Below are positions 13,687 through 43,425 of a stretch of 49,728 nt of DNA, in pieces. The notes beneath the pieces are model-generated. The model worked only from the letters and a program-made list of their open reading frames with translations, did no database searches and was not told the DNA's origin. Within the stretch, counting starts at the first letter, position 1; every line of letters begins with the position of its first letter. The position numbers and the translations under genes are program-made. Origin of the DNA: Candidatus Iainarchaeum sp. (GTDB taxonomy: Archaea > Iainarchaeota > Iainarchaeia > JAFGOX01); contig JAFGOX010000032.1 in NCBI GenBank assembly GCA_016926295.1, positions 1 to 49,728 of the forward strand. Reading direction: 5' to 3'.

Positions 13687-14832
13687 ATGCAGATTGCAAT
13701 ACGGGCTGAAGTCATTGGAGACGATGACCTGAAAAGAACAATCATGTTGAGCAACCTGGCGTGCCAAGAGTGTATCGACATCGGAATGAAAAATAAGACT
13801 TACAACAAGACAAGACTGCATCACTTGACCTATCATGTTGTCAGGGCATCTCATCCTGAACTTAACAGTAGCCTCGTCACCGCTATGCGAGACCAAGCAA
13901 GCGATATGCTTAAGCAACTCAAACTCAAAAAAAAACCAACCAAAAAACAATATTCTTCGATTAGGCTCAACCACAACACATTCAGATTTCTCCCTGCTTC
14001 CAATATGGTCAGTATAAGCACAATAACTGGGAGAAAGAAGTATGTTCTGAACATCCCCCCTTATTTCAATAAATACTTTTTCCACGAATCCAATTCGGCA
14101 AGAATTAGATTGGTCGATGGAAGAATATTCATCGACATCATTGTAGATGTTGATGCTTCCAAAAAAATCAAGGTTAAAAAAATCATTGGTGTGGACAGGG
14201 GCGTTTATCATCCTGCCGTCACATCCGATAACACATTTTTTAACAGTAAACATCTTCGTGAAGTAAAAGGGCGATATAGATATTTGAAGAGATGCCTTCA
14301 GCGAGCAGGCACTCGCTCCGCTAAAAGACATTTGCAGAAAATTAGCGGGCGAGAGAGACGGTTCGTCACTGATGTAAACCACTGCATCTCGAAAACAATC
14401 GTCAACAAAGATTGCGATGCTATCGCTCTGGAGAAATTAAGAACAGGGCGTATGAAAAGAAAAGGTAAAACTGGAAAGAAGACCAGGCGGCTCATTGGGA
14501 GCTGGAGTGCAAAGCAACTTCTCAGCTTCATCGAATACAAGGCTGAGATGCTTGGCAAACCCGTAATCCTCGTGAACAGCCACTACACAAGCCAAGCCTG
14601 TAACAGATGCGGTGATATACGTCGAATCAACCGAAAAGGAAGTCACTTCAACTGCTGTGTCTGCGGGTATTCTCTTCATGCTGACCTCAATGCTTCACGC
14701 AACATCGCTTGTCTCGCCAAAGGCAAGACGAGCAGGCTGTCTGTCAACCAGCCAATCGTAGCATGTGATGATATCAAAGCCTCACTACGTGAGGAACTGC
14801 GAGCGAGCATAGTTACAAGCTCCGCATTTTAA
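13687..14832 (+). CDS. tnpB: TnpB (OrfB_IS605) RuvC-like RNA-guided endonuclease candidate
   Basis: The product is 381 aa. RuvC I is GVDRG, RuvC II is IALEKL and RuvC III is HADLNASRNI. The zinc ribbon is CNRCG...CCVCG. Confidence 0.9.
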   Translation: MQIAIRAEVIGDDDLKRTIMLSNLACQECIDIGMKNKTYNKTRLHHLTYHVVRASHPELNSSLVTAMRDQASDMLKQLKLKKKPTKKQYSSIRLNHNTFRFLPASNMVSISTITGRKKYVLNIPPYFNKYFFHESNSARIRLVDGRIFIDIIVDVDASKKIKVKKIIGVDRGVYHPAVTSDNTFFNSKHLREVKGRYRYLKRCLQRAGTRSAKRHLQKISGRERRFVTDVNHCISKTIVNKDCDAIALEKLRTGRMKRKGKTGKKTRRLIGSWSAKQLLSFIEYKAEMLGKPVILVNSHYTSQACNRCGDIRRINRKGSHFNCCVCGYSLHADLNASRNIACLAKGKTSRLSVNQPIVACDDIKASLREELRASIVTSSAF

Positions 14833-17211: not shown

Positions 17212-18603
17212 TTATTCAACGCGATATGTTTCATTCAAGTTACTTGTCTGTATTTTTGAAAAATATCTTGAACTCATTTTTTCCTCTTTAAATAGTTGGG
17301 AATACAAACCATATAGCTCGAATTGCGAAAGGTAAACATAGTCAACATTGTTTCTTGACAAAATATATGCCGCTTCCTCTGGATTCTCTGATTCAAAGAA
17401 ATCCCTTGTATCGGAAATTCTCTGGTTTGCATTTGGCAGCCCTTCCATATAAGCTCCAACAACTACTGAATTCAGTGAATACCATGGAATGTAATATCCT
17501 GAAACAAAACCTGACATTATTCTTGCAGGTTCAATTGAACGATGATAAACTGCGGCAGCAATATCCGCATCACTTGCCGGCGGGGCGTAATTTACACCAA
17601 GAGAAACTGCATTGAAAATAACAATTAACAGGAAAACAATAATAAGCGGCCTGAAGAAATAACTCTTTGAAATTTTCTTGAGTACTATGGCAGCCAAAAC
17701 TGCGGCAGGGAAAATTGCAAATGTAAATTCCCTATAAGCAAACATTGTGTTTCCGAAAACCAATGACATGAATAATATTGCAAAATAAAAAACAAACCAG
17801 ATTGTTATTGGTCTAATTTTTTTGTCTTTGTAAACAAACGGCACTGCAACGAGCGATAAAAGCAATGAATACCCTACAACATTGAATGGCTGGAATCCCA
17901 GAACAAAAGGATTTTCAACAAAAGATAATCTCTGCAAGAATAATAATTTCGGCAGCCAGAAAACAACTGCGGCAAAAACAGGGAAGGAAAGGAATTTCAA
18001 AACTTTCTTGTAGTCAAAACTATTCTTGTACGAATATGCAAAGACAATGAAAATTAGCAAGATAGGAATAAAATTAATTGATGAGCGCGTATGCATCAAA
18101 ACAAGAGCGGCAGCAGAAACACTTGCCAGTTTGTATCTGTCCTCTAAAAGCAAAAGTAAGGTTAATAAAATCAAAAATAACCCAAAGGTTTCAGGAATCG
18201 GGATTGCAATTAGCCTAAAAAGGCGCGGGGCAAAAACAGTAAACATGCCGGCAAGAGCGGCATACTTCCAGTCAGGGACAAACTTCTTCGCAAGAGAGTA
18301 AGCGACCATGAAAAAGCCAACTGAAAGGAACATTGAAAATCCCTGCCAGATAGTCAAGGCTTCAAGTCCGGTTACCTGCATCAGGCTTGCGGAGAAAACA
18401 TCAAAAAGCAAAGGATATGTGTATGGAACGGTGCCACCTAAAGCCTGGTTATGCGTAGGCAAACGAGACATTTCACTAATATAATAAGATACTCGCGCAC
18501 GCTCAAACAAATCAGAACTCATAAACGTATTAAATTGCAGAACAACAACAGAAATTGCAGCAAGCACCACCATTAAAAAAAATAATAAGTTTATTTTGGG
18601 CAT
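17212..18603 (-). CDS. Large polytopic membrane protein, possibly a GT-C-fold glycosyltransferase
   Basis: More than 10 predicted TM helices precede a C-terminal soluble tail (..NNVDYVYLSQFE..). ATG 18603 (MPKINLLFF) is preferred over the longer track ORF. I recognised no diagnostic catalytic motif. Confidence 0.5.
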   Translation of the reverse strand: MPKINLLFFLMVVLAAISVVVLQFNTFMSSDLFERARVSYYISEMSRLPTHNQALGGTVPYTYPLLFDVFSASLMQVTGLEALTIWQGFSMFLSVGFFMVAYSLAKKFVPDWKYAALAGMFTVFAPRLFRLIAIPIPETFGLFLILLTLLLLLEDRYKLASVSAAALVLMHTRSSINFIPILLIFIVFAYSYKNSFDYKKVLKFLSFPVFAAVVFWLPKLLFLQRLSFVENPFVLGFQPFNVVGYSLLLSLVAVPFVYKDKKIRPITIWFVFYFAILFMSLVFGNTMFAYREFTFAIFPAAVLAAIVLKKISKSYFFRPLIIVFLLIVIFNAVSLGVNYAPPASDADIAAAVYHRSIEPARIMSGFVSGYYIPWYSLNSVVVGAYMEGLPNANQRISDTRDFFESENPEEAAYILSRNNVDYVYLSQFELYGLYSQLFKEEKMSSRYFSKIQTSNLNETYRVE

Positions 18604-18652
18604 AAGGCAAATACTTCTAAAGGTATAAAAAGGGTTTTCCAGAGTCTTAAGT

Positions 18653-20092
18653 ATGACACTAAGCCCCAAATACATCGTTGTTTTTTGGCTTTTTCTAGCT
18701 TTGCTGCTTTTTGTTTTTCCGGATTTTTATTTGCAGGCTCACGGAATCGCCAAGTTATTATTTGAAGGATATTCATACGGAAAACTTATGGCTTTCCTGT
18801 TATGGGAGATTTTCTTCTTTGCGATTATAGCTTTTGCGCCAAAACTAAAGTTCAAGCACAAGTTTGATCCTCTGCAAGCTTTAGGACTGGCAATTTTTGT
18901 AGGATTTATTTTTGGGGTAGTGCTTCAGCTGGGCGTAAACTCAATGATGGATGTTTCGCAGCATGGATACTTGGGAATATTAACTTCCTTCAACGGAACT
19001 GAAACATGGGAGGCCTCCCATTTAGGCCATATCCATTTGGGAAAGGTTGCAATCGCACCATTTGCTGAACTTGGGTTGCTAAATGGGGCAGTGGATAATG
19101 GAATTCCTGTTTTCCAAATGCTGCCCTTTGCATCACTGTTTTCTGTTGTTTTTATTCTCATTGCATTAGCAATAGCCGCATTTGCATTCCTAGAAATCCA
19201 GGAGAAAAAAATATCAACGCATGGAAAAATAATTCTAAGTGTTGCGGTCTTTGCATCAATTGTCACAATAATTGATGGCGGGGTTTTCACGCAGGTTGGA
19301 AAAATAGCAACCGGCCTAATTGTACTTTACTGGGCAACTGAATACATGAAAGGAAAGACAAAATTTGTCGCACAGCTTATTTTTCCCCTTGGTGCAGTAT
19401 TATTCATCCAGACAATCTTTGAGCTGTTTGCAAATTACCAGACTTTGTGGAGCACAGAGCCATTTGTTGTATTAATACTAAGTTTCTTTGTTATTGCCTA
19501 TGAATCCATAAAAGAACTTTTGAAGAAAAGAGACAATATTGAATGGGGGAAACTAATCGTATCATTGATTTTCATTTACTTCCTGTGGCAGCATCTCGAT
19601 TCATATCTAATAGACTATTCAGTAGGCAGTTACCCATCAATGGGGGATGAAATGAGTCTTTTCATTTACGGAATACCCCAAACCGCGACAGATTCTGATG
19701 TGATTTCAGGTTTATCGAAATACGGGGCAGTAAGCAAATTCGAAAGGTGGTCCTGGACAGCAAGGGCGGATTTGACCGTCACAAATCCTACAGCAACAAA
19801 TGTAATGGCAGAAGAAATGAAGGAAAAATTAAAACCAGATTCATACTTTTACATATTAAGGCTTTGGGAAGCGCAGACAATCTGGGTGATAGACCCGACA
19901 GGAAACGACGCTTTGGAGAAGCTGGATTCTGAATTTGTAAAAGTGACAAAAATAAAGGACATTGGAGGAAAAAGAAAAATAGGAGTGAGAACAAAAATGG
20001 ACCCGATATGGACCTCATTGTATCTGCTTGATTATCTAAAGATGATTGGCAGGGATGAGCCATTAGTTTTGGTTACGGACTGGTTTGAATGA
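18653..20092 (+). CDS. Polytopic membrane protein with a C-terminal soluble domain of about 150 aa; function unknown
   Basis: The product is 479 aa and transcribed divergently from 17212..18603. It overlaps the next gene by ATGA. Confidence 0.55.
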   Translation: MTLSPKYIVVFWLFLALLLFVFPDFYLQAHGIAKLLFEGYSYGKLMAFLLWEIFFFAIIAFAPKLKFKHKFDPLQALGLAIFVGFIFGVVLQLGVNSMMDVSQHGYLGILTSFNGTETWEASHLGHIHLGKVAIAPFAELGLLNGAVDNGIPVFQMLPFASLFSVVFILIALAIAAFAFLEIQEKKISTHGKIILSVAVFASIVTIIDGGVFTQVGKIATGLIVLYWATEYMKGKTKFVAQLIFPLGAVLFIQTIFELFANYQTLWSTEPFVVLILSFFVIAYESIKELLKKRDNIEWGKLIVSLIFIYFLWQHLDSYLIDYSVGSYPSMGDEMSLFIYGIPQTATDSDVISGLSKYGAVSKFERWSWTARADLTVTNPTATNVMAEEMKEKLKPDSYFYILRLWEAQTIWVIDPTGNDALEKLDSEFVKVTKIKDIGGKRKIGVRTKMDPIWTSLYLLDYLKMIGRDEPLVLVTDWFE

Positions 20093-22194
20093 TAACAGGA
20101 AAATCCGATTCAGTGTTTGTTGCAATATCACTTGCAGTGATATTCTGCTTGCTCTTGGTTCCAATCTGGGGAATTTTAAGCCCAAAAATATCATTCATAA
20201 GCATGGAGCTGCTCAACCACGACAAAGTAATCTACGGGGACAGCATATCAATGGTTTCATTCCAGATGACCCCCTACAACACAAGCAGCGACCTAATAAG
20301 GGATGTAAAAATCTACACCAATGACAATCTTGTGTTCAAAAAAGAAGCAACAATCACACCAGACGAGCCAACAAGAATGGGGCTGATGCTAAATGGAAGT
20401 GAAATGCAGCTCGGCGACAATCTCATAACAATCACAGCAGGAGAAAAATCATTATTTTACCACATAGAAAAACGGGAGGGCACAGGTATTTCTGAAAAAG
20501 TAGTTTTGCCGGATAAACTTCCTGAAACAGAATCACAGGACCCGTTATCACCAATAAAGCTGCCTTTGTTCTTTGCTTTATTCTTTATTCCGGGATGTTT
20601 CCTTTTCAGACACAAAGTAACGCTTGAAAGGCTTGCACTAACTTTTGCATTAGGTTGTACTTTATTCATAATTACTCCCTGGGTTCTGAACTATGGGGGG
20701 TTACTGAACAGTTTGAATCTTATTCTGGCACTTGGATTCATTTCCTTACTGGCCATAGTAATGAACTACAAAAAGAAAGCTCCAAAAGAAAAGAACGTGG
20801 AGATAAACCGGATAATGCTGCTTGTTTGCGCAGGAATAATACTGGCGGGAATACTGATGCTGTTCCTTCCTTCCCACTACAATCTCTGGAATGTGTTCTA
20901 TGAAAGATACTCAGAGCAAATGATTGGAAGCGGGACAATACCAATGGAAGACCCTTTCAGTTATCTTGGGAGGGGTTACACTTTTGTTGAGGGATATTTC
21001 CTGTTCAGTGCAGCAAGCGCATGGATTACAGGATACTCCGGAACAATGGTTTTTGGATTGGTTCAGGCAATGCTTAATGGATTCTTTATAATCTCTGTGC
21101 TGAATTTCGGCCGCTCACTTGGATTCAAGCTAAAAGAACAGCTTCTCGTTTTGCTTTTCCTACTTGCATCAGTCTTCATATTTGTAACCTTTGCAATGTC
21201 GCCAAAGCACATACTCGCACTGGCATTATTGTTAACCGCAACAGCATACATGATTGAACGGGATAAATTTGTAATATCCGGCGGATTGGCTGCAATGGCA
21301 GCATACTCACAAGCGCTAATGGGCGTGATGTATCCTATTCTTTATTTGCTTTTTGTAAAAAAGACAGACTGGCCGAAGTTCCTGAAAAGTATTGCAATAA
21401 TGCTGCTTGTGTTTGCTATAATTTACCTTCCGATATATGCGCACTCTGGCCTTCCGTATGAAGTAAATGAGTCAACATGGGGCTATCTGATAAAGGCGGA
21501 CGTCAGTCAGGCAATTACAGACCTTGGCGGATTAGTCGCAGTTCTTCTGATTATAGGGGCTGCAGCAACCATAGGAAAATGGAAGAAAATAAAATTCAGG
21601 CAGAAGAAAATAATCCTGTTCACTTTGCTTTTTGTCTTTGCAGAAATATTCATCACATACAGGGCAAACATTTTCCTTTCACTGACTCTTGCAGTAGGAT
21701 TCATCTACGCATTCAAAGACAATTTCAAGGACAAGTGGCTTTACATTGTAATTTTGCTGATTGCTTTATTCTCAATATACCTGAACTTCCAGGTACTGCA
21801 GTGGTCGACTCTGGATGAAGCATTAATCAGTTCCGGAACCTTCATTAATCTGAACAGCAATGAAAACGCAAGAATATTAAGTGACCCGCTGTATGGCCAT
21901 GCAGTAACCTATTTCGCACAAAGGCCGGCATTATCAGACTTATATGTGGAATACGCAAGTGAAGAAAAGCTCAATGATACATACGATTTCATAATAAATG
22001 AAAACCTGGCTGTGCTTCAAAAATACAAAATAGATTATGTAATGATAAACAGGAATTCAATAATAAATGAGGCAAGGAATGTAATTAATTATCCAAAACC
22101 AAAGGAATTCACAACCTTGGATAAGATAATTAGCGCAAAGGAAATAGATGTATACGCAACGCAGGTTGGTAATTATGGTCAAACCGCAAACTAA
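20089..22194 (+). CDS. Large polytopic membrane protein with an N-terminal extracytoplasmic beta-rich domain, possibly GT-C-like
   Basis: The product is 701 aa. One TM helix is followed by a soluble segment of about 140 aa and then many TM helices. The C-terminal tail (..KYKIDYVMINRNS..) resembles that of 17212..18603. Confidence 0.55.
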   Translation: MITGKSDSVFVAISLAVIFCLLLVPIWGILSPKISFISMELLNHDKVIYGDSISMVSFQMTPYNTSSDLIRDVKIYTNDNLVFKKEATITPDEPTRMGLMLNGSEMQLGDNLITITAGEKSLFYHIEKREGTGISEKVVLPDKLPETESQDPLSPIKLPLFFALFFIPGCFLFRHKVTLERLALTFALGCTLFIITPWVLNYGGLLNSLNLILALGFISLLAIVMNYKKKAPKEKNVEINRIMLLVCAGIILAGILMLFLPSHYNLWNVFYERYSEQMIGSGTIPMEDPFSYLGRGYTFVEGYFLFSAASAWITGYSGTMVFGLVQAMLNGFFIISVLNFGRSLGFKLKEQLLVLLFLLASVFIFVTFAMSPKHILALALLLTATAYMIERDKFVISGGLAAMAAYSQALMGVMYPILYLLFVKKTDWPKFLKSIAIMLLVFAIIYLPIYAHSGLPYEVNESTWGYLIKADVSQAITDLGGLVAVLLIIGAAATIGKWKKIKFRQKKIILFTLLFVFAEIFITYRANIFLSLTLAVGFIYAFKDNFKDKWLYIVILLIALFSIYLNFQVLQWSTLDEALISSGTFINLNSNENARILSDPLYGHAVTYFAQRPALSDLYVEYASEEKLNDTYDFIINENLAVLQKYKIDYVMINRNSIINEARNVINYPKPKEFTTLDKIISAKEIDVYATQVGNYGQTAN

Positions 22195-29928: not shown

Positions 29929-30485
29929 GAACTTTTGTAATGGTCACCAACTTGGCTCAGACAGACGGAGATTTTTCATTGAATGGTTTGCCTAATGCAG
30001 GAAGGATGGATGTAATCTGCAGGTGCGTTAACTCTGCATTCTGGCTTTCTGACAATCTAAGAAATGATACTGTTTTTTACATTGTGATGCGAGGGGCGCC
30101 GAATCCTCCAATTACCCTGAAATTTGTTGGAGAAGAGCTGAAAAGAATGAGCCCTGATGAAAGAAACATTGCAAGCCACATAAAGAACCTGCTTTCAACA
30201 AAACCAGGAAAAATCTGGCAGACAGACGGAATGGGTTTGTATGCAAAAAAGATAGACCTTGATGGCCTGCTGGGGGAAATCAAAGGGGAAATAATATATC
30301 TTGACAAAAATGGGAAAATTGAAGAACTAAAGGAAGATTTTGTTTATGTAATGGGCGACAATAAGGGCTATTCGGAAAAAGATATTGAACTGCTTTCCAA
30401 AAAAGGGAAAAAAGTCAGTCTGGGAAAAACAGAATACCTGAGCAGTCAGTGCATTACAATAATAAATTACAAACTGGACGGATGA
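29925..30485 (+). CDS. trmY: tRNA (pseudouridine54-N1)-methyltransferase TrmY (SPOUT, DUF358)
   Basis: The product begins MRTFVMVTNLAQTDGDFSLNGLPNAGRMDVICRCVNSAFWLS. Its start overlaps the upstream stop as ATGA. The longer track ORF (29808) is an upstream read-through. Confidence 0.8.
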   Translation: MRTFVMVTNLAQTDGDFSLNGLPNAGRMDVICRCVNSAFWLSDNLRNDTVFYIVMRGAPNPPITLKFVGEELKRMSPDERNIASHIKNLLSTKPGKIWQTDGMGLYAKKIDLDGLLGEIKGEIIYLDKNGKIEELKEDFVYVMGDNKGYSEKDIELLSKKGKKVSLGKTEYLSSQCITIINYKLDG

Positions 30486-30487
30486 AC

Positions 30488-31612
30488 ATGGAGAAAATAA
30501 GACTCTGCGAACGCTGCACAAAAAGATACTCGCGCATTCCAAAAGAAGAAATTGCGACAACAAACGAAAAGGAGTGCCCGGCCTGCAGAAACATATTTTC
30601 AAAGAAAAAGGAAATGATGCAGCTCGTTGAGAAAACCGTAAAGGAATACGAATTTGATAATTTTCTTCTTGGCTGCATACTTCCTGACAAAATAATTGAT
30701 TTTGAAACCGAAATGATAGAGAAATATGAGCATGAAGACCAGAGAAGCATAAAGCAGGACATCAATCAGGAAATAGGAAGCGAATTTGAAAAGCGCTGGA
30801 AAAAAGAAGTCAATTTCACAAATCCGGAAATAATGATTATTCTAGATTACATAGGAAACAAAGTAAAACTGCAGATAAAACCCGTTTACATCTACGGAAG
30901 ATACAACAAATACGAAAGAGGATTGCCGCAGACAAAGTGGCCATGCAGGAAATGCCGCGGAAGAGGATGCAAGCAATGCAACAACACAGGAAAGCAGTAC
31001 GGGGAAACACTCGAAGAATTAGTTGCAGTCCCTTTTGTCGAAGCATCACAGGCAAAGAATGAAAGCTTCCATGGCGGAGGAAGAGAAGACATTGATGCAG
31101 TAATGCTTGGAACCGGAAGACCCTTTGTCTTGGAACTTATTGACCCTAAAATAAGAAAGATTGATTTGAAGAAACTTGAGAAAGTAGTTAATGAAAAAAA
31201 CAAGGACCGGGTTGCGATTCATGATTTGGAATTCACAGAAAAGAAAAAGGTCGTTGACATAAAAGCGGCAAAACATGACAAAACATATATTGCATTAACT
31301 AGATGCAGCGAATCCATTACAAATTCAGACATAGCAAAAATAAACAAAATAAAAGACATGAAACTTGAGCAATACACCCCAAAGAGAGTTGAGAACAGAA
31401 GGGCAAAACTGACAAGGGAAAGAACTGTTTATTATGTAAAAGCAGAGCGTGTTGAAAGGGATCTGCTTAAACTTGAAATAAAAGCTGAAACAGGCACATA
31501 CATAAAAGAGTTTATATCTAGTGATAACGGGCGCACAAAACCAAGCATAACCGAAATAATAGGGAAACCCTGCATTTGCGAGGCGCTGGATGTTATTAAT
31601 ATCGAGGGATAG
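30488..31612 (+). CDS. pus10: tRNA pseudouridine synthase Pus10
   Basis: Zinc motifs are CERC...CPAC and CRKCRGRGCKQC. The catalytic region is GGGREDIDAVMLGTGRPF. The start could instead be 30482 (ATGA overlap with trmY). Confidence 0.85.
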   Translation: MEKIRLCERCTKRYSRIPKEEIATTNEKECPACRNIFSKKKEMMQLVEKTVKEYEFDNFLLGCILPDKIIDFETEMIEKYEHEDQRSIKQDINQEIGSEFEKRWKKEVNFTNPEIMIILDYIGNKVKLQIKPVYIYGRYNKYERGLPQTKWPCRKCRGRGCKQCNNTGKQYGETLEELVAVPFVEASQAKNESFHGGGREDIDAVMLGTGRPFVLELIDPKIRKIDLKKLEKVVNEKNKDRVAIHDLEFTEKKKVVDIKAAKHDKTYIALTRCSESITNSDIAKINKIKDMKLEQYTPKRVENRRAKLTRERTVYYVKAERVERDLLKLEIKAETGTYIKEFISSDNGRTKPSITEIIGKPCICEALDVINIEG

Positions 31613-32580: not shown

Positions 32581-32925
32581 ATGCACAACATTCTTATGGT
32601 GGGTAAATTGAATGTTCCTGATTATTTGAATGCCCCTTGGCTAACTAGGGACTATATTGAGAACTGGGGTTGGGTGCCAACAAGCGGTGATGTTGACCTG
32701 AAACCAGTTACAGAAACTCCTTTTGGTGAATTGCCACTGAAAAGCCGGGATGAATTCAAAGCAGGAGACATAATTATCTTTTATGATGCTGAAGAACGCG
32801 AAGTAGATGGAAAAATAGAAACAGATAGATTCATTACAGTTGAACAATGTGAAATAGATCTTTACAAACAAGGAAAAGCAGACTTACTTCCACACGGGGT
32901 AGTAGTCCATCCTCCAAAATTATAA
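32581..32925 (+). CDS. Hypothetical protein
   Basis: A 114-aa ORF with no recognisable motif. It is preceded by a 138-bp non-coding gap. Confidence 0.4.
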   Translation: MHNILMVGKLNVPDYLNAPWLTRDYIENWGWVPTSGDVDLKPVTETPFGELPLKSRDEFKAGDIIIFYDAEEREVDGKIETDRFITVEQCEIDLYKQGKADLLPHGVVVHPPKL

Positions 32926-33981
32926 AAACTTATTCTCCACTCCTGCACCTTCAACAGATATAACGGCCGGCTTGTCTTGTTCCCCATCAACTTTGAACTT
33001 GACTGGGAGCAATTGCTCTGCAACCCAAATATTTGTCATAGTATGCATGGAAAGAAAGGTAGTGTAAATTTCTGATTTTCCTTTTGCCAGGGCCATATAT
33101 GGAATTAATTGGTCTGCCAGGTAAGGGCCGACAGGCGCTTTGATTTTAAGATATTCAAGCAGCTCGTACGCCGCTTTTGTTCCGATGTCTGTAGCCTCCT
33201 GGCCTTTTTCAAGCAAGGCACTTGCGCCAATTACGCCACCAGTAGTAGTATACGCCCATAGGCTTATTCCTGCCCCGCGGGTTTGCGCAACGCCCTTTTG
33301 CTCATTTTCATTTAAAATAACGTCCTCGATTCCTGCTTCAGTAAACACATGCAATGCCGCAAGCTTAATCTCCCGTAAAATATCTGATGGCAATCCTGCT
33401 GAATGAACTGTGCCTTCAATGTAGTCAATGTTTCCAAAATCAGTTATTTTTATTTTTCTAAGATACTGCGAAGGATTCGAATGAAAAACTATTCGCCCGT
33501 TTCCCTTTGGATAATATCCCCGGTTCACAAGCTTTGCGGTTCCGCGGTATTTCATTTTTGACAAAGTCGGAAGCAGAACATTAATCAAAAAATCAGACGG
33601 TGGCGACCACGCAACATCGGTTCCGCCAAGAATCTTCAAATCAAGCGCAGTTGGAAGAAACACTGTCGCTGGCATCAGCGCCTGCAAAACAAGGCTTATT
33701 GAACCCGCAGTGCCAACATTCATTGAAAAATTCCCGCCCGATAATTCCTTTGGGGAAAAGGTTATCTTCTGCGAGCCCAAATCAACGCCCTTGTCTTCTG
33801 ACTTGGCAATCAGTCTGTATGCTTTTATTGCAGAAATATGCTGGGCTTTCAGTCCTGGCTTTGGTCTCCCTTCCCTGATTTTGTCAACACTTATCTCCTG
33901 TCCGGTTATTGATGCAAGTGCAAGGGCTGTACGAAGTATCTGTCCTCCACCCTCCAATTGTGATCCATCCAATTCTATCAT
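32920..33981 (-). CDS. rtcA: RNA 3'-terminal phosphate cyclase
   Basis: The N-terminus reads DGSQLEGGGQILRTALALASITGQ. Length is 353 aa. Confidence 0.88.
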   Translation of the reverse strand: MIELDGSQLEGGGQILRTALALASITGQEISVDKIREGRPKPGLKAQHISAIKAYRLIAKSEDKGVDLGSQKITFSPKELSGGNFSMNVGTAGSISLVLQALMPATVFLPTALDLKILGGTDVAWSPPSDFLINVLLPTLSKMKYRGTAKLVNRGYYPKGNGRIVFHSNPSQYLRKIKITDFGNIDYIEGTVHSAGLPSDILREIKLAALHVFTEAGIEDVILNENEQKGVAQTRGAGISLWAYTTTGGVIGASALLEKGQEATDIGTKAAYELLEYLKIKAPVGPYLADQLIPYMALAKGKSEIYTTFLSMHTMTNIWVAEQLLPVKFKVDGEQDKPAVISVEGAGVENKFL

Positions 33982-37108: not shown

Positions 37109-37531
37109 TTAAAACATCTCGATTACGCCGTCTTTGCATTCTACAAAGTCCCCTATACGTCGTTTATATTCCTTATAAAGGGCGTTTACGGCTGTTTCAT
37201 TGACCCTCATTTTCCCAAAGCATTTATGGGGCACCAGGGCTCCTGAAAAGGTCTTTGGCACATGGAGCAATTCATGCAAAATAGTCTTCTGTTTGTCCTC
37301 GAAAGAGAGCCTGTCAAAGCGTGTAGAAATGACCTCTATGACGTAATGTGCCTGAATTTTGAGGGCTTTCTGCCATATATCTGGCATTGACCATATCCTG
37401 GCTATTGCATTGTTCTTTGTACCCCTACTTCTCATGCAAACTATCCTTGTTGAATCGACATGCTTCAAATCGAGCTTGAAAACCAGGTCCTCCATGATTG
37501 CCTGTACATCAGGGGCCAATTCCACATCCAT
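37109..37531 (-). CDS. Predicted zinc metallopeptidase (HExxH, SprT/COG4900-like)
   Basis: The product is 140 aa and contains ILHELLHVPKTFSG. The family assignment is from memory only. Confidence 0.55.
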   Translation of the reverse strand: MDVELAPDVQAIMEDLVFKLDLKHVDSTRIVCMRSRGTKNNAIARIWSMPDIWQKALKIQAHYVIEVISTRFDRLSFEDKQKTILHELLHVPKTFSGALVPHKCFGKMRVNETAVNALYKEYKRRIGDFVECKDGVIEMF

Positions 37532-37602: not shown

Positions 37603-38925
37603 ATGACAGCTGATATTTTGAACAACCCAGACAAGATTATGTTCTCAATTATGGAACAAACAGGAAAAGCAGAATCTGAAATCCGCGGACTTATTAAGAA
37701 GAAAATTGACGCCTTTGGCGGAATGCTTACAGAAGCCGGGGCAGCATACTCGGTGGCAAACGATTTGGGAGTAAAGATGGGTACGAACGCCCCTAAAAGA
37801 AAAAGATTGAAACTATCTGATTTGGAAGAGGGAATGGAAAATGTGGATGTTGTAGTTTCAGTAAAGCAAGTTTTTGCTCCGCAGACATTTGAAAAGGAAA
37901 ACAAAAAAGGAAGAGTATGCAGTGTAATTGTTACCGATGGGGCAGAAGAAGCAAGATTAAGTTTATGGCATGATGATGTTGATTTGGTAGAGCAGGGAAA
38001 AATAGCAAGCGGAACAACCTTGCTTCTTGAAGGCGCTTATGTGAAACTCTACAATGAGCAGAAGCAGCTTTCTGTGACATCAAAGGGAAACATTGTGATA
38101 AATCCGGAAGGAGAAAACATTAAAGTTCCGAAAATAGAAGTCAGCATGAAAAAGATAAAGGAAATAAAAGTGGGAAATGCGGATGTAAACCTCATTGGGA
38201 AAATAACGTGGATGGGAACATTAAGGACTTTCCAAAGAGACGGACAGCCAGGAAAGGTTGCGAACATAGAACTTGTTGACGGAACAGGAAAAATAAGGGT
38301 TGCGTTATGGGGCGAACACACAAACCTGTTAACAAGGGCGAATGTGGGGGATGTTATTCAGATTAATGGCGGATACGCAAGGGAAGGATTAAACAATGCC
38401 GAAGTGAATGTCGGATGGAGGGGGACATTAATTGTAAATCCCCAGACAGACCTTGCGAAAGAACTTGAAAATGTGAGAGCAGAAGGGCTTGAGAAATTCA
38501 GAATTGACAAACTGGATGACGGCATATCCGGAGAGATAAACGGAATGGTGGTTCACATTTATGATAATAGGTCATTCAACTCCTGCCCGAAATGCAATGG
38601 AAAGACAGAAGGAACAGTCTGCCCGAAATGCGGAAATGTTGAACCCGTAAGCAAAATGATTCTTCCATTCGAGCTTGACGATGGATTCGGATGTATAAGG
38701 TGCGTTGCATTCGGTGTGCAGGCGCAGAAAATACTGGGAATTGAAAAGAATGATGTGAATGCGGATATAAAGCTAAAATCAACTGGAAAAAAGATTGCAA
38801 TAACAGGTACTGCAAGAAAGGATGAGTTCTCTGGCGGGTTAAGCTTCACCTGCAGGAACCTAGTGTCTGACAAAATAGACGCTTTGAAAGAAACAAATGA
38901 AGTCCTGGAAAGGATTTCAGAATGA
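37603..38925 (+). CDS. rpa: Replication protein A-like ssDNA-binding protein (multiple OB folds plus a zinc ribbon)
   Basis: The product is 440 aa with repeated OB-like segments ([11 protein letters not shown]..., [10 protein letters not shown]..., [10 protein letters not shown]...). The zinc ribbon is [17 protein letters not shown]. It lies immediately upstream of radA. Confidence 0.75.
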
Positions 38926-38938
38926 TGGAGGAATTAAA

Positions 38939-39889
38939 ATGTCAGCAAAGAAAATTGAAACTATAGAAGATTTACCTGGCGTAGGTGCCACAACAGCAGA
39001 AAAATTGAGAGCAGCAGGTTATACAAACCTTGAAGCAATAGCCGTAGCTTCACCAATGGAATTAAGTGAAATTGCAGCTTTGGGAGATGCAACAGCAGTA
39101 AAAGCAATAAATGCTGCCAGAGACGCACTTGAAATGGGATATGAAAGTGCAGACAAGATACTAGAGAAGCGAAATCAGATAAAGAAACTTACAGTACCGT
39201 CAGAAGCCTTTAATGTTTTATTGGGCGGAGGACTTGAAACTCAGTCAATAACCGAGGCATACGGACAATATGGCTCAGGAAAAAGCCAGCTTGCCCACCA
39301 GCTTGCAGTAAGCGTACAAGTGCCACTGGAAGAAGGCGGACTTGGTGGAAACTGCTTATTCATCGACACTGAAAACACTTTCCGCCCGGAAAGAATAAAG
39401 CAGATGGCAGAAGCGCGCGGCATGGACCCGGATGAGGTTCTGAAAAACATAATTGTAGGTCGCGCATACAACTCAGACCATCAAATGCTGCTTCTTGAAA
39501 AGGCAAAGGACCTGATTAAGGAGAAAAACATCAAACTAATTGTTGTCGACTCTTTGACCGCGCATTTCAGGGCAGAATACACTGGCCGTGGAAAGCTCGC
39601 AGAAAGACAGCAGAAACTGAACCGGCACATGCATACCCTGCAGAGAGTTGCAGATGTAAACGATTTGGTCATATTTGTAACAAACCAAGTAATGTCAAGG
39701 CCGGACGTTATGTTCGGGGACCCGACTGCGGCAATTGGTGGCCATGTTGTAGCACACACAGCAACCTACAGACTTTATCTCAGAAGAAGCAAAGCAGAGA
39801 AAAGAATAGCAAAACTTGTGGACAGCCCTAACCTTCCGGATGGGGAAGTAGTTTTCAGGGTAACAAGCAACGGAATTGAGGACGAATAG
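38939..39889 (+). CDS. radA: DNA repair and recombination protein RadA
   Basis: The HhH motif is [12 protein letters not shown]. Walker A is GQYGSGKSQ and Walker B is LIVVDS. ATG 38939 is preferred over the longer track ORF. Confidence 0.92.
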
Positions 39890-39901
39890 AACAACTGTGC
39901 C

Positions 39902-39909
39902 TTTAAATA
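39902..39909 (+). promoter_or_regulatory. Candidate archaeal TATA box for the tRNA cluster
   Basis: TTTAAATA ends 29 nt upstream of the tRNA-Ile 5' end. Confidence 0.4.
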
Positions 39910-39937: not shown

Positions 39938-40054
39938 GGGCCTATAGCTCAGCTTGGTTAGAGCGCACGACTGATAATCGTGAGGTCGCCGGTTCAAATC
40001 TGTTTTTCCTTAGTATGATTACGAGGAATTGCAGTGGAAATCCGGCTAGGCCCA
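39938..40054 (+). tRNA. tRNA-Ile (anticodon GAT) with a 42-nt intron in the T-loop
   Basis: Hand fold: GGGCCTA/TAGGCCC acceptor, GCTC/GAGC D-stem, CACGA-CTGATAA-TCGTG anticodon arm and GCCGG...CCGGC T-stem. The T-loop TTCAAA|T is split by 39999..40040. No CCA is encoded. Confidence 0.85.
39999..40040 (+). other. Non-canonical (T-loop, position 59/60 by my numbering) tRNA intron with a BHB motif
   Basis: The T-stem is 39988-92/40042-46. The central helix pairs TTCA 39993-96 with TGGA 40035-38. The inner helix pairs CTGT 40000-03 with GCAG 40031-34. Two 3-nt AAT bulges lie at 39997-99 and 40039-41. Confidence 0.8.
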
Positions 40055-40065
40055 CTCTTCATTTC

Positions 40066-40140
40066 AGGTCTGTAGCTCAGCCAGGCCAGAGCGCTCGGCT
40101 TTTAACCGAGATGTCGCGGGTTCGAATCCCGCCAGACCTA
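40066..40140 (+). tRNA. tRNA-Lys (anticodon TTT)
   Basis: The acceptor is AGGTCTG/CAGACCT. The anticodon arm is CTCGG-CTTTTAA-CCGAG and the T-arm is GCGGG-TTCGAAT-CCCGC. It starts 11 nt after tRNA-Ile. Confidence 0.9.
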
Positions 40141-40147
40141 TTTTTCT

Positions 40148-40273
40148 GCAGGGGTAGCGAAGTCTGGCCAAACGCGCGAGACTCAAGATTGTTGATCTTG
40201 AGACTTGAGCTTGAGCAATGATGATAAATCTCGTCACTTTGTGTGTTCGCCGGTTCGAATCCGGCCCCCTGCA
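40148..40273 (+). tRNA. tRNA-Leu (anticodon CAA) with a canonical 37/38 intron
   Basis: The acceptor is GCAGGGG/CCCCTGC. The anticodon stem CGAGA/TCTCG and loop CTCAAG|A are split by 40188..40227. It has a long variable arm and the T-arm GCCGG-TTCGAAT-CCGGC. Confidence 0.88.
40188..40227 (+). other. Canonical tRNA intron (40 nt) with a BHB motif
   Basis: The bulges are AGA (40186-88) and AAA (40226-28). The central helix pairs (C)TCA with TGA(T). The inner helix pairs TTGTTG 40189-94 with CAATGA 40216-21. Confidence 0.8.
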
Positions 40274-40316: not shown

Positions 40317-40391
40317 GCCCAGGTGGTGTAGTCCGGCCTAGCATGCAAGACTGTCACTCTTGCGACTCGGGTTCAAATCCCGGCCTGGGCG
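40317..40391 (+). tRNA. tRNA-Asp (anticodon GTC)
   Basis: The acceptor is GCCCAGG/CCTGGGC. The anticodon arm is CAAGA-CTGTCAC-TCTTG and the T-arm is TCGGG-TTCAAAT-CCCGG. Confidence 0.9.
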
Positions 40392-40392
40392 C

Positions 40393-40398: not shown

Positions 40399-40434
40399 AT
40401 ACTTTATCTATTTTTATTGTTAATAATACGATTT

Positions 40435-40520
40435 GCAAGGGTAGCGAAGTCTGGCCAAACGCGCTGGATTTAGGGTCCAGTCCCTTTGTGGGTTCGCCGG
40501 TTCGAATCCGGTCCCTTGCA
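40435..40520 (+). tRNA. tRNA-Leu (anticodon TAG)
   Basis: The acceptor is GCAAGGG/CCCTTGC. The anticodon arm is CTGGA-TTTAGGG-TCCAG. It has a long variable arm, and its D-arm is identical to that of tRNA-Leu(CAA). Confidence 0.9.
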
Positions 40521-40599
40521 TTAACAATAGGAATTGCAGTCTATGGGGGCGGATAAGGGCTTTATAGACGGAAAGAAGGTTAATTGGATTCGTGAGAAT

Positions 40600-41085
40600 A
40601 TGGTAAAGATACTTTTGTTTACTGAAGGAACAATAATCATGCACAAGGGTGCTTCAGGTCATAAAAGAGAAGATATTGTAAAGCAGGTTAAAAACAAAGA
40701 AAAGACAGTACATGAGTACGAGTCTTATATCCCAATTGGAAATGCAGTTCAAAAATTGAAAAAATGGAAAGAATCAGGAGCTGAAATTTTCTATTTGACT
40801 TCCCGCAAAAAACCTGAAGAGGTTGCACAAATTCAAAGAGTACTTCAAGACTACGATTTTCCAGATGGCAAGTTGCTACACCGAGAAGAAAATGAAGAAT
40901 ATTGTAACGTTGCTGAAAAATGCAATCCAAATATCTTAATTGAGGATGACTGCGAGAGCATTGGTGGAACCGATGAAATGACTATAACTCCTATTAAACC
41001 TGAAATTAAGAGAACAATCAAATCAATACCAATTAAGGAATTTGGAGGGATTGATCATCTACCAGACCGCCCAGAGAATTTATAA
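40600..41085 (+). CDS. Hypothetical protein, possibly HAD-like with a degenerate motif I
   Basis: The product begins MVKILLFTEGTIIMH and contains FYLTSRK and ILIEDD. These resemble HAD motifs II and IV, but the nucleophile DxD is absent. The start is uncertain because the track ORF begins at 40534, right after the tRNA. Confidence 0.45.
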   Translation: MVKILLFTEGTIIMHKGASGHKREDIVKQVKNKEKTVHEYESYIPIGNAVQKLKKWKESGAEIFYLTSRKKPEEVAQIQRVLQDYDFPDGKLLHREENEEYCNVAEKCNPNILIEDDCESIGGTDEMTITPIKPEIKRTIKSIPIKEFGGIDHLPDRPENL

Positions 41086-41554: not shown

Positions 41555-41779
41555 ATGACAAATAAAAGATTATACAGAAATCAGAATGACACAATACTTG
41601 GCGGTGTTGCAAGCGGAATGGCAGAATACTTTGATACTGACCCTACATTAATCAGAATACTCTGGGTTATATTTGGATTAGTCAGCTTGGGAACTGCAAT
41701 TATCCTGTATCTGGCAATGTGGATTATAGTTCCGGAAAAACCAATGGCAACGCCAAAAAAGAAAACTAAGAAGAAATAA
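41555..41779 (+). CDS. PspC-domain membrane protein
   Basis: The sequence LYRNQNDTILGGVASGMAEYFDTDPTLIRILWVIF is followed by a TM helix. ATG 41555 is preferred. Confidence 0.75.
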   Translation: MTNKRLYRNQNDTILGGVASGMAEYFDTDPTLIRILWVIFGLVSLGTAIILYLAMWIIVPEKPMATPKKKTKKK

Positions 41780-42284
41780 CCCGTTTCCCTTTTGCCTGGG
41801 GAATAATCTTTTTCTTGGATTTTTTAAATTCCTTAGTGAGTTCCTTGCCCTGGAAATATTCATGCAAAAAAACAGCCAATGCGCCCGCTTCTGAATGGGG
41901 CTGGTTTGTAACAGAAACATTCCAGTCGGCAACCTCGTACGCAGCTGGCGGAACTTTAGCAGAGCCAATCACCACAATCAGATTCTTTTCCTTTCTGATA
42001 TCCTTGATTACATCTTGCAATTGCGAACCATAAGCAGTTAGGTGCACAACTTTGCAGTTTTTCTTCTCCTTGTTTACAAAGGGCTTCCATTGCTTGACAT
42101 ATTTTGTTTCAAACGGGCCGCCAAACTGCTCTGTAACTTTGTCCAAACCGGAAAGAAGCTTTCTGTCTTCATCTCCTGAAAGAATGAATTCATCTGCACC
42201 AAACGCCCTTGAAATCAGACCGACATGCGTGGTAAGTCTTGCGTCCCTTGCGATTCTGTGATTTAGCCTTAATACCTTAATCAC
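41766..42284 (-). CDS. trm56: tRNA (cytidine56-2'-O)-methyltransferase Trm56 (SPOUT)
   Basis: The product has (V/M)IKVLRLNHRIARDARLTTHVGLISRAFGADEF. GTG 42284 is preceded by GGGAGGGA and overlaps the upstream permease stop (GTGATTAA). The track ORF extends further, to 42359. Confidence 0.8.
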   Translation of the reverse strand: MIKVLRLNHRIARDARLTTHVGLISRAFGADEFILSGDEDRKLLSGLDKVTEQFGGPFETKYVKQWKPFVNKEKKNCKVVHLTAYGSQLQDVIKDIRKEKNLIVVIGSAKVPPAAYEVADWNVSVTNQPHSEAGALAVFLHEYFQGKELTKEFKKSKKKIIPQAKGKRVISS

Positions 42285-43425
42285 CCTGTCCCTCCCTAAG
42301 AGCATCAATCGGCTCAAGCCTTGAGGCCCTGAACGCAGGATATGCTCCGGCGAAAACACTTACACTTATTGCAAATATGAACACCTCTGAAATAAGCATA
42401 GGTGTCATTAACGGATAAAGTCCTGATGCGATTCCTATTAATTCACCAACAAGAATACCAAAAACAATTCCTGCAATTCCCCCAAGCACGCCAAGGAACA
42501 TTGATTCAAGCAGAATCATCTGCATAACATTATTATTTGTCCATCCGACTGCTTTCAGGACTCCTATTTCAGAATATCTTTCCATAACAGACATAAGCAT
42601 TGTATTCATCACCCCTATTCCTGCAACAATTGATGAAATCAATGCGATAACCAAGGTCATAGCTCTAAGGCTGTCTAAAATATCTCCAGTAAGTGCGGCA
42701 GTCTCCTGTGCTGAATAGGCATCAAAATCATCAGGATACTTGAAATCAATTATCTTGTCTATCTTGTCAACGTTTGCGGGGTCTGCGGGCACTACAAAGA
42801 AACTATTGACCTTTCCTTCCTCAAAATCCAAAACTTTTCTTGCATCTTCGATTGGAAGTACGATTACGTTTGAATAAAAATCTGAAGTCACCTCAACAAT
42901 TCCAATAACCTTGAAGCTATAATCATTTATTTTGATTGTAGAATTAACATGCTTTTTTCTGTCATCGGATAATTTTGTAGAAATCAGAACTACGCCTTCA
43001 TCTCCCGACCTTAGCATTCTTCCTTCCTTAAGATTCTGCATTGCTGTTGCAAGAAGGCTGTTCGAAACCTGGCCTGGGTCGGTCCCTATAACAGAAACAG
43101 GTATTCCTCCACTCATGGAATTTCTTTTTCCATCAACAGTCTGCGGAACGCCAAGTATTGTGGGGGTAACGACTTTAACGCCCTGAATTGCTTCAAGCTT
43201 TGACTTATCCGAAAGATTTACAATTGAAAGAGAATCATCTGTAGCCCCATCTTGCATGACATAAACACCCTGCATTCCGCCAACGGCATCAAGGGCAAGC
43301 GCATTTATCCCTTCAACCAAACCAACTAGCACAAGCAAAGCTGCTACGCCTATCATTATTCCCAATAGTGCCAGAACAGTACGCGATTTCCTTCGCAGCA
43401 GGTTTAGAAAGGACATTTTAAACAT
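42277..43425 (-). CDS. MacB/FtsX-type ABC transporter permease (paralogue 2)
   Basis: The N-terminus is FLNLLRRKSRTVLALLGIMIGVAAL. A large extracytoplasmic domain is followed by a C-terminal FtsX 3-TM bundle ending YPAFRASRLEPIDALR. Confidence 0.85.
   Translation of the reverse strand: MFKMSFLNLLRRKSRTVLALLGIMIGVAALLVLVGLVEGINALALDAVGGMQGVYVMQDGATDDSLSIVNLSDKSKLEAIQGVKVVTPTILGVPQTVDGKRNSMSGGIPVSVIGTDPGQVSNSLLATAMQNLKEGRMLRSGDEGVVLISTKLSDDRKKHVNSTIKINDYSFKVIGIVEVTSDFYSNVIVLPIEDARKVLDFEEGKVNSFFVVPADPANVDKIDKIIDFKYPDDFDAYSAQETAALTGDILDSLRAMTLVIALISSIVAGIGVMNTMLMSVMERYSEIGVLKAVGWTNNNVMQMILLESMFLGVLGGIAGIVFGILVGELIGIASGLYPLMTPMLISEVFIFAISVSVFAGAYPAFRASRLEPIDALREGQGD

Follow-up and report, generated by a model that had tools for sequence, protein, structure and literature searches.

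Does a tRNA gene whose T-loop is broken by a 42-nt insert still give rise to a working tRNA, or has it been inactivated? This question is raised by a tRNA-Ile(GAU) gene (39938-40054, + strand) on a contig of a metagenome-assembled genome (MAG) that carries the NCBI label "Candidatus Diapherotrites archaeon". The window analyzed here is this entire contig, with a length of 49,728 bp. Based on the arrangement of the exons and the insert, we consider it very probable that the insert is a spliced bulge-helix-bulge (BHB) intron at tRNA position 59/60, the removal of which would yield a functional tRNA-Ile(GAU) of a DPANN archaeon. Below, we describe the gene and the predicted motif, weigh the possibilities of a pseudogene, an artefact, and an insertion of DNA, and compare the intron with known systems.

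Exons and cloverleaf of the interrupted tRNA-Ile(GAU)

The original prediction had described a tRNA-Ile(GAU) that is split in its T-loop by a 42-nt insert, and every coordinate proved to be right on direct reading. Exon 1 (39938-39998, + strand) comprises tRNA positions 1-59, i.e., the 5' strand of the acceptor stem, the D-arm, the anticodon arm, the variable loop, the 5' strand of the T-stem, and the T-loop bases UUCAAA (54-59). The insert occupies 39999-40040 (+ strand), and exon 2 (40041-40054, + strand) supplies U60, the 3' strand of the T-stem (CCGGC), the 3' strand of the acceptor stem (TAGGCCC), and the discriminator A73, while CCA is not encoded in the gene. Within the resulting cloverleaf, the acceptor stem is formed by GGGCCTA (39938-44) pairing with TAGGCCC (40047-53), with the discriminator A at 40054; the D-stem by GCTC/GAGC; the anticodon arm by CACGA-CTGATAA-TCGTG, with the anticodon GAT; and the T-stem by GCCGG (39988-92) pairing with CCGGC (40042-46), all pairs having been checked by script. 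Deletion of 39999-40040 leaves a 75-nt sequence with the T-loop TTCAAAT, so that the anticipated exact restoration of this loop by intron removal was borne out, and ARAGORN calls the spliced form tRNA-Ile(gat). The spliced exon junction predicted from the sequence consists of GGUUCAAA followed directly by UCCGGC.

For the unspliced sequence, ARAGORN returned no gene. The Rfam tRNA model matched the locus at 39938-40012 only, with a score of 42.1 bits; in this match, pairs of the acceptor stem and T-stem are disrupted and the 3' half is false. Apart from this mis-ended match, the locus yielded no Rfam hit at or above the gathering score. Standard tRNA finders therefore either miss the gene (ARAGORN) or give it a wrong 3' end (Rfam tRNA model). 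This missing call is one of the points in favor of a pseudogene, i.e., of a tRNA-Ile that was inactivated by a 42-bp insertion while its function is served by an intact copy at another genomic site. A scan with the Rfam tRNA model revealed no second tRNA-Ile within the 49.7-kb window; the visible genome is limited to these 49.7 kb, which leaves room for a second copy. However, the exons themselves are flawless, with all 12 pairs of the acceptor stem and T-stem intact and all conserved T-loop bases kept, which argues against an inactivated gene.

A five-tRNA cluster downstream of radA

The genomic context bears on the same question. The interrupted gene is the first of a five-tRNA cluster, encoded on the + strand directly downstream of radA (38897-39889). 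It is followed after 11 nt by tRNA-Lys(UUU) (40066-40140) and further downstream by tRNA-Leu(CAA) (40148-40273), tRNA-Asp(GUC) (40317-40392), and tRNA-Leu(UAG) (40434-40521). tRNA-Ile and tRNA-Lys are probably encoded on one transcript. A TATA-box-like element (TTTAAATA, 39902-39909, + strand) lies 29-36 nt upstream of tRNA position 1, and this position suggests that it serves as the promoter of the tRNA cluster; the pattern TTTAWATA is not enriched in the window, with 10 occurrences compared to 8.2 expected. The place of the interrupted gene at the head of this tight cluster, with a TATA-like box upstream, is a second point against a pseudogene.

The continuity of this region is equally relevant to the question of whether the 42-bp insert might have arisen during assembly or binning of the MAG contig. 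It is true that the contig derives from a metagenome-assembled genome and that the locus is known in one copy. However, the flanks run continuously from radA into four further tRNAs, and a chimeric join would not be expected to yield an internal hairpin, a strict BHB motif, and a perfectly restored tRNA at once. We therefore regard such an artefact as extremely improbable.

The predicted BHB motif of the precursor

In the precursor, the outer helix h corresponds to the T-stem, whose five G-C pairs (39988-39992 with 40042-40046) have a pair probability of >0.99. The central helix H, on which the T-stem stacks, is formed by U54, U55, C56, and A57 (39993-39996), which pair with UGGA at 40035-40038 (U-A, U.G, C-G, and A-U), and the inner helix h' by CUGU (40000-40003), which pairs with GCAG at 40031-40034 (C-G, U-A, G-C, and U.G), is part of the MFE structure and likewise has a pair probability of >0.99. 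Between these helices lie the 5' bulge, A58 A59 / U (39997-39999), and the 3' bulge, A A / U60 (40039-40041), while the interior of the intron contains a hairpin (UUCCUU.GUA....UACGAGGAA; 40006-40028); all of these elements are given on the + strand. The motif is therefore a strict 3-4-3 hBHBh', with two 3-nt AAU bulges on opposite strands and 4/4 standard pairs in H; its weak spots are the U.G pair inside H and the U.G pair that ends h'. A script confirmed all pairs of the fold that had originally been proposed (5-bp T-stem, 4-bp central helix, 4-bp inner helix, and AAT bulges) and found no error in its hand numbering.

The archaeal EndA endonuclease cleaves between the second and third bulge nucleotide. 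Applied to the two bulges and the BHB register, this rule predicts cuts after A59 (between 39998 and 39999) and before U60 (between 40040 and 40041). With AAAU present at each of the two junctions, the mature tRNA would be identical for every in-register pair of cuts made inside this repeat, and it is the BHB register that assigns the insertion to the site class 59/60 of the T-loop. We take position 59/60 in the T-arm to be the exact structural counterpart of position 37/38 in the anticodon arm, on account of the 5-bp stem, the pairing of intron positions -6 to -3 with four bases of the loop, and the bulges located 3' of H on each strand. Judged by its sequence, the insert is a genuine BHB intron of the already known 59/60 class, a kind of intron known since 2003.

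The same operon offers a direct point of reference, as tRNA-Leu(CAA) contains a 40-nt intron at the canonical position 37/38 (40188-40227). Its BHB motif is imperfect, with 3/4 pairs in H (C32.U mismatch), an h' of 6 bp, and the bulges AGA and AAA. Since this intron belongs to the same operon, BHB introns must be spliced in the organism, which implies the corresponding machinery.

Two other kinds of insert were considered and rejected. The catalytic core of group I and group II introns comprises hundreds of nucleotides, and with a length of only 42 nt and no match to an Rfam intron family, the insert does not represent a self-splicing intron of either group. Euryarchaeal tRNA-Trp introns encode C/D box sRNAs, with the C box RUGAUGA and the D box CUGA. 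A C/D box sRNA in the tRNA-Ile intron was rejected, as AUGAUUA has one mismatch to the C box, CUGA is absent, and no snoRNA family of Rfam matched. Close to the 3' end of the tRNA-Leu(CAA) intron lies a perfect C-box-like sequence, AUGAUGA, and this intron also contains three tandem copies of CUUGAG, each of which is complementary to the anticodon loop CUCAAG.

Chance expectation and thermodynamics of the motif

In a chance test, the intron was shuffled 200000 times with the register kept fixed. An H of 4/4 pairs combined with an h' of at least 4 bp arose in 0.08% of the shuffles (p about 8e-4), while an h' of at least 3 bp or at least 2 bp accompanied a complete H in 0.20% and 0.45%, respectively. 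The rarity with which shuffled introns match a strict BHB in the exact register that restores the tRNA adds to the evidence from the exons and the cluster, and we thus consider a pseudogene to be improbable. Furthermore, the fold of the pre-tRNA beats 200/200 dinucleotide shuffles (z = -4.3).

Thermodynamic folding recovered the motif in part. The expectation that RNAfold would recover the BHB was confirmed for h and h', which are exactly contained in the MFE structure, but not for H, which is left open there as a symmetric 7x7 loop; the pair probability of H is ~0.10, and the complete BHB fold lies 0.8 kcal/mol above the MFE. For calibration, the 37/38 intron of tRNA-Leu(CAA) was folded as well, and its BHB fold lies 5.6 kcal/mol above the alternative MFE structure. 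Since this undisputed intron fares worse, the absence of H from the MFE structure is not evidence against the BHB. By the computed energy gap to the MFE, the motif of tRNA-Ile is the better of the two.

Host contig and its gene content

The window has a G+C content of 40.4%, and the RadA it encodes is identical to NCBI MBN1160073.1. Besides RadA, its archaeal replication and repair genes include both subunits of PolD, Cdc6/Orc1, Hel308, Hjc, and RPA, and further archaeal genes code for SRP54/FtsY, S19e, L31e, aIF6, Pus10, and aTrm56. To our knowledge, PolD is absent from Crenarchaeota, and its presence in the window therefore argues against a crenarchaeal host. Gene content and the NCBI label place the host among the DPANN archaea; PolD, RadA, RPA, Hel308, Hjc, and aTrm56 were all found, and the label Candidatus Diapherotrites points in the same direction. 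The closest RadA proteins outside the window share 67-70% identity and originate from MAGs labelled Micrarchaeota, Iainarchaeum/Diapherotrites, or other DPANN; as the best identity elsewhere is this low, the contig represents a lineage without a close sampled relative.

Three enzymes that modify the T-loop of tRNAs are encoded within 12 kb of the T-loop-interrupted tRNA: a TrmY-like methyltransferase identified by its Pfam domain PF04013 (29808-30485, + strand), Pus10 (30449-31612, + strand), and aTrm56 (41766-42359, - strand). The RNA 3'-phosphate cyclase RtcA (32920-33981, - strand) is encoded within this distance, too. The proximity of these genes to the interrupted tRNA is probably a coincidence in a small genome and is regarded here as background rather than as support for splicing.

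The contig also encodes a TnpB / IS605 OrfB-like protein (13687-14832, + strand) with a Cas12f1-like TNB domain and an OrfB_IS605 domain, the ORF of which overlaps a reverse-strand ORF of 392 aa that has no Pfam match. Three large adjoining ORFs, 17212-18675 (- strand), 18653-20092 (+ strand), and 20089-22194 (+ strand), code for proteins of 487, 479, and 701 aa, respectively, none of which matched a Pfam family at E <= 1e-4. A 140-aa protein (37109-37531, - strand), encoded closely upstream of the genes for RPA and RadA, matches PF18894, 'Putative phage metallopeptidase'.

Search for related loci

No orthologous intron was found in 80 genome loci around radA homologues (<= 69% identity), none of which contains a tRNA-Ile, and tRNAs are entirely absent from a further seven loci that surround the most similar RadA proteins (68-70% identity). 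That the insert is not shared by any relative examined is a further point in favor of a pseudogene and is included in our assessment of it given above. In two of the loci, L001 and L003, radA is followed by tRNA-Leu(UAG) only, located behind a small reverse-strand ORF. In both of these loci (L001 2928-3064 and L003 5342-5465), the first 12 nt of tRNA-Leu(UAG) (GCGGGGGTGCCC) occur a second time about 125-135 nt upstream, and the upstream copy of GCGGGGGTGCCC is followed by G+C-rich, structured-looking sequence. Integration may have left this duplicated sequence behind as a fragment of the tRNA; alternatively, it could represent an unrecognised RNA.

A pattern scan of metagenomes for tRNA-Ile retrieved 27 loci. 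In 26 of these, the tRNA-Ile is intron-less, mostly bacterial, and was retrieved through a chance match downstream; L086 alone is interrupted. This locus (JGI contig Ga0180302_10021777, 76-171, + strand) is a T-loop-interrupted tRNA-Ile(GAU). A loose scan for a T-stem and acceptor stem split by 8-120 nt, which covered ~0.7 Mb of fetched DNA, yielded only two tRNA-like cases, the window locus and L086. Another locus from the pattern scan, L089 (1690-1800, + strand), contains an intact, bacterial-looking tRNA-Ile(GAU). A second copy of the last 12 nt before its discriminator (CCACTCAGGCCC) is located 27 nt downstream, an arrangement similar to the attachment-site duplication of an integrated element.

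Origin of the insert

The pentanucleotide AAATC brackets the insert as a direct repeat (39996-40000 and 40038-40042), which had been pointed out previously and is read directly in the sequence. The BHB does not force this repeat, as the only position it constrains is i-3, the base opposite U54, which has to be A or G. The repeat could therefore be a target-site duplication left when the insert arrived as DNA, either as a small mobile element or through a microhomology-mediated event, and was tolerated because it could be spliced. Such an origin is compatible with the splicing of the insert proposed here, since it concerns only where the insert came from. A second observation that could be taken in its favor is that a 12-nt stretch of the intron (AGGAATTGCAGT, 40024-40035) recurs at 40529-40540, 8 nt downstream of tRNA-Leu(UAG), where it overlaps the start of an ORF (40534-41085). 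However, with an E of 0.08 this match does not exceed what chance would give in the window. Moreover, the ends of the insert lack terminal inverted repeats, and a search of the window and of 114 fetched loci revealed no further copy of the intron; due to these two absences, an insertion sequence or a MITE bounded by a target-site duplication was rejected. In addition, a length of 37-42 nt is far below known MITE sizes, and A-rich bulges are found in the intron of tRNA-Leu(CAA) as well (AGA and AAA), so that the repeat may reflect bulge composition. Altogether, we attach little likelihood to an arrival of the insert as DNA. By a narrow reading of the same two observations, the AAATC repeat and the 12-nt identity would be the footprint of a microhomology-guided insertion of local DNA, and not of reverse splicing, which we judge to be doubtful in a similar, marginally lesser degree. 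While a DNA-level insertion footprint at this locus is thus unlikely, it would, if true, provide a concrete handle on the unsolved gain and movement of archaeal tRNA introns.

Proposed splicing pathway

With a spliced 59/60 intron as the preferred interpretation, a pathway can be outlined according to established knowledge of archaeal tRNA splicing. Transcription would start from the TATA-like box at 39902-39909 and would probably include tRNA-Lys and tRNA-Leu(CAA), from which tRNA-Ile and tRNA-Lys, respectively, are separated by spacers of 11 and 7 nt. EndA would then recognise the pseudo-symmetric motif and cut at the two predicted sites (39998/39999 and 40040/40041), which would leave ends with a 2',3'-cyclic phosphate and a 5'-OH. 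An RtcB-type ligase would join A59 to U60, and circularisation of the intron would be possible. The T-loop would form only after splicing, followed by pairing with the D-loop, T-loop modifications, and CCA addition. Since U54, U55, and C56 are sequestered by the intron, formation of the elbow and the T-loop modifications must wait for splicing. A Pfam scan of the ~50 ORFs in the 49.7-kb window did not find EndA or RtcB domains.

The original prediction had further stated that such an intron requires an endonuclease of relaxed positional specificity. This does not follow, as the strict 3-4-3 motif does not demand a broad enzyme per se (PMC3239211 and PMC7714728). Strict motifs are needed by alpha4 and alpha'2 EndA, whereas (alpha-beta)2 and epsilon2 EndA are needed for relaxed ones (PMC3239211). 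Furthermore, the BHB motifs cleaved by archaeal EndA include some in precursors of rRNA (PMC7714728), and cleavage thus does not depend on a position within a tRNA. The locus provides a clean test substrate for the roles of motif and position in EndA specificity.

Comparison with known systems

The 59/60 intron of tRNA-Ile(GAU) leaves the current picture of archaeal tRNA splicing unchanged. It adds a clean example with a strict motif in tRNA-Ile(GAU), and its host belongs to a DPANN lineage with the label Diapherotrites that has been sampled sparsely and for which we found no report of tRNA introns in the searchable literature. It also illustrates an annotation trap, since automatic annotation would list tRNA-Ile as missing or defective, a problem that has been flagged for DPANN and Asgard genomes, in which incomplete tRNA sets point to undetected disrupted genes (Kaneta et al., PMC5829648).

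The closest comparison is found within the operon itself. The 37/38 intron of tRNA-Leu(CAA), 130 nt downstream, has an identical architecture of stem, H, 3-nt bulges, and inner helix, whereas the motif of tRNA-Ile is cleaner (4/4 compared to 3/4 pairs in H) and its intron sits in the T-arm, where it sequesters U54, U55, and C56. The metagenomic locus L086 is similar to the window gene in that a tRNA-Ile(GAU) carries a T-loop insert between perfect halves of the T-stem and acceptor stem. However, its insert is only 22 nt long and unrelated in sequence, and the tRNA is G+C-rich. Furthermore, by hand analysis, the register that fits it best is 58/59, where the motif is relaxed: H is GUUC/GAAC and uses G53, h' is CGGCC/GGCCG, and extra bases on the 3' side are unpaired. 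The insert of L086 is therefore an independent event and not an orthologue.

Non-canonical tRNA introns were reportedly described for Crenarchaeota and Thermoproteales by Marck and Grosjean in 2003 and by Sugahara et al. in 2008. Like the intron in the window, the introns of these hosts depend on a BHB and lie outside position 37/38, and 59/60 is among the listed non-canonical archaeal intron sites (PMC4090602). The crenarchaeal BHB motif is also transplantable, as EndA reads the BHB and not the body of the tRNA. In contrast, crenarchaeal and Thermoproteales hosts possess (alpha-beta)2 EndA and lack PolD, whereas the host of the window is a DPANN archaeon with PolD and 40% G+C, and many of the non-canonical crenarchaeal introns have relaxed motifs, while the motif described here is strict.

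Within DPANN, ARMAN-2 (Candidatus Micrarchaeum acidiphilum) offers the nearest parallels. Its tRNA-Cys(GCA) contains a 13-nt intron at 59/60 with a relaxed hBH motif that is cleaved in vitro by epsilon2 EndA (Fujishima et al. 2011, PMC3239211), and its tRNA-Pro(GGG) contains introns at 53/54 and 59/60 with a strict hBHBh' (PMC3239211). A DPANN host and the 59/60 site in the T-loop are shared with the intron in the window, as is, for tRNA-Pro(GGG), the strict hBHBh'. However, different tRNAs are affected, the sequences show no relationship, and the hosts belong to Micrarchaeota in one case and carry the Diapherotrites label in the other; furthermore, the tRNA-Cys intron differs in its length (13 nt compared to 42 nt) and in its relaxed motif. 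The L3-loop EndAs of many DPANN lineages have been linked to an increased disruption of tRNA genes (Kaneta et al., PMC5829648). The intron of tRNA-Ile(GAU) fits this picture of DPANN tRNA gene disruption and extends it to a different tRNA and a different lineage, with an intron that is much longer than the 13-nt intron of ARMAN-2.
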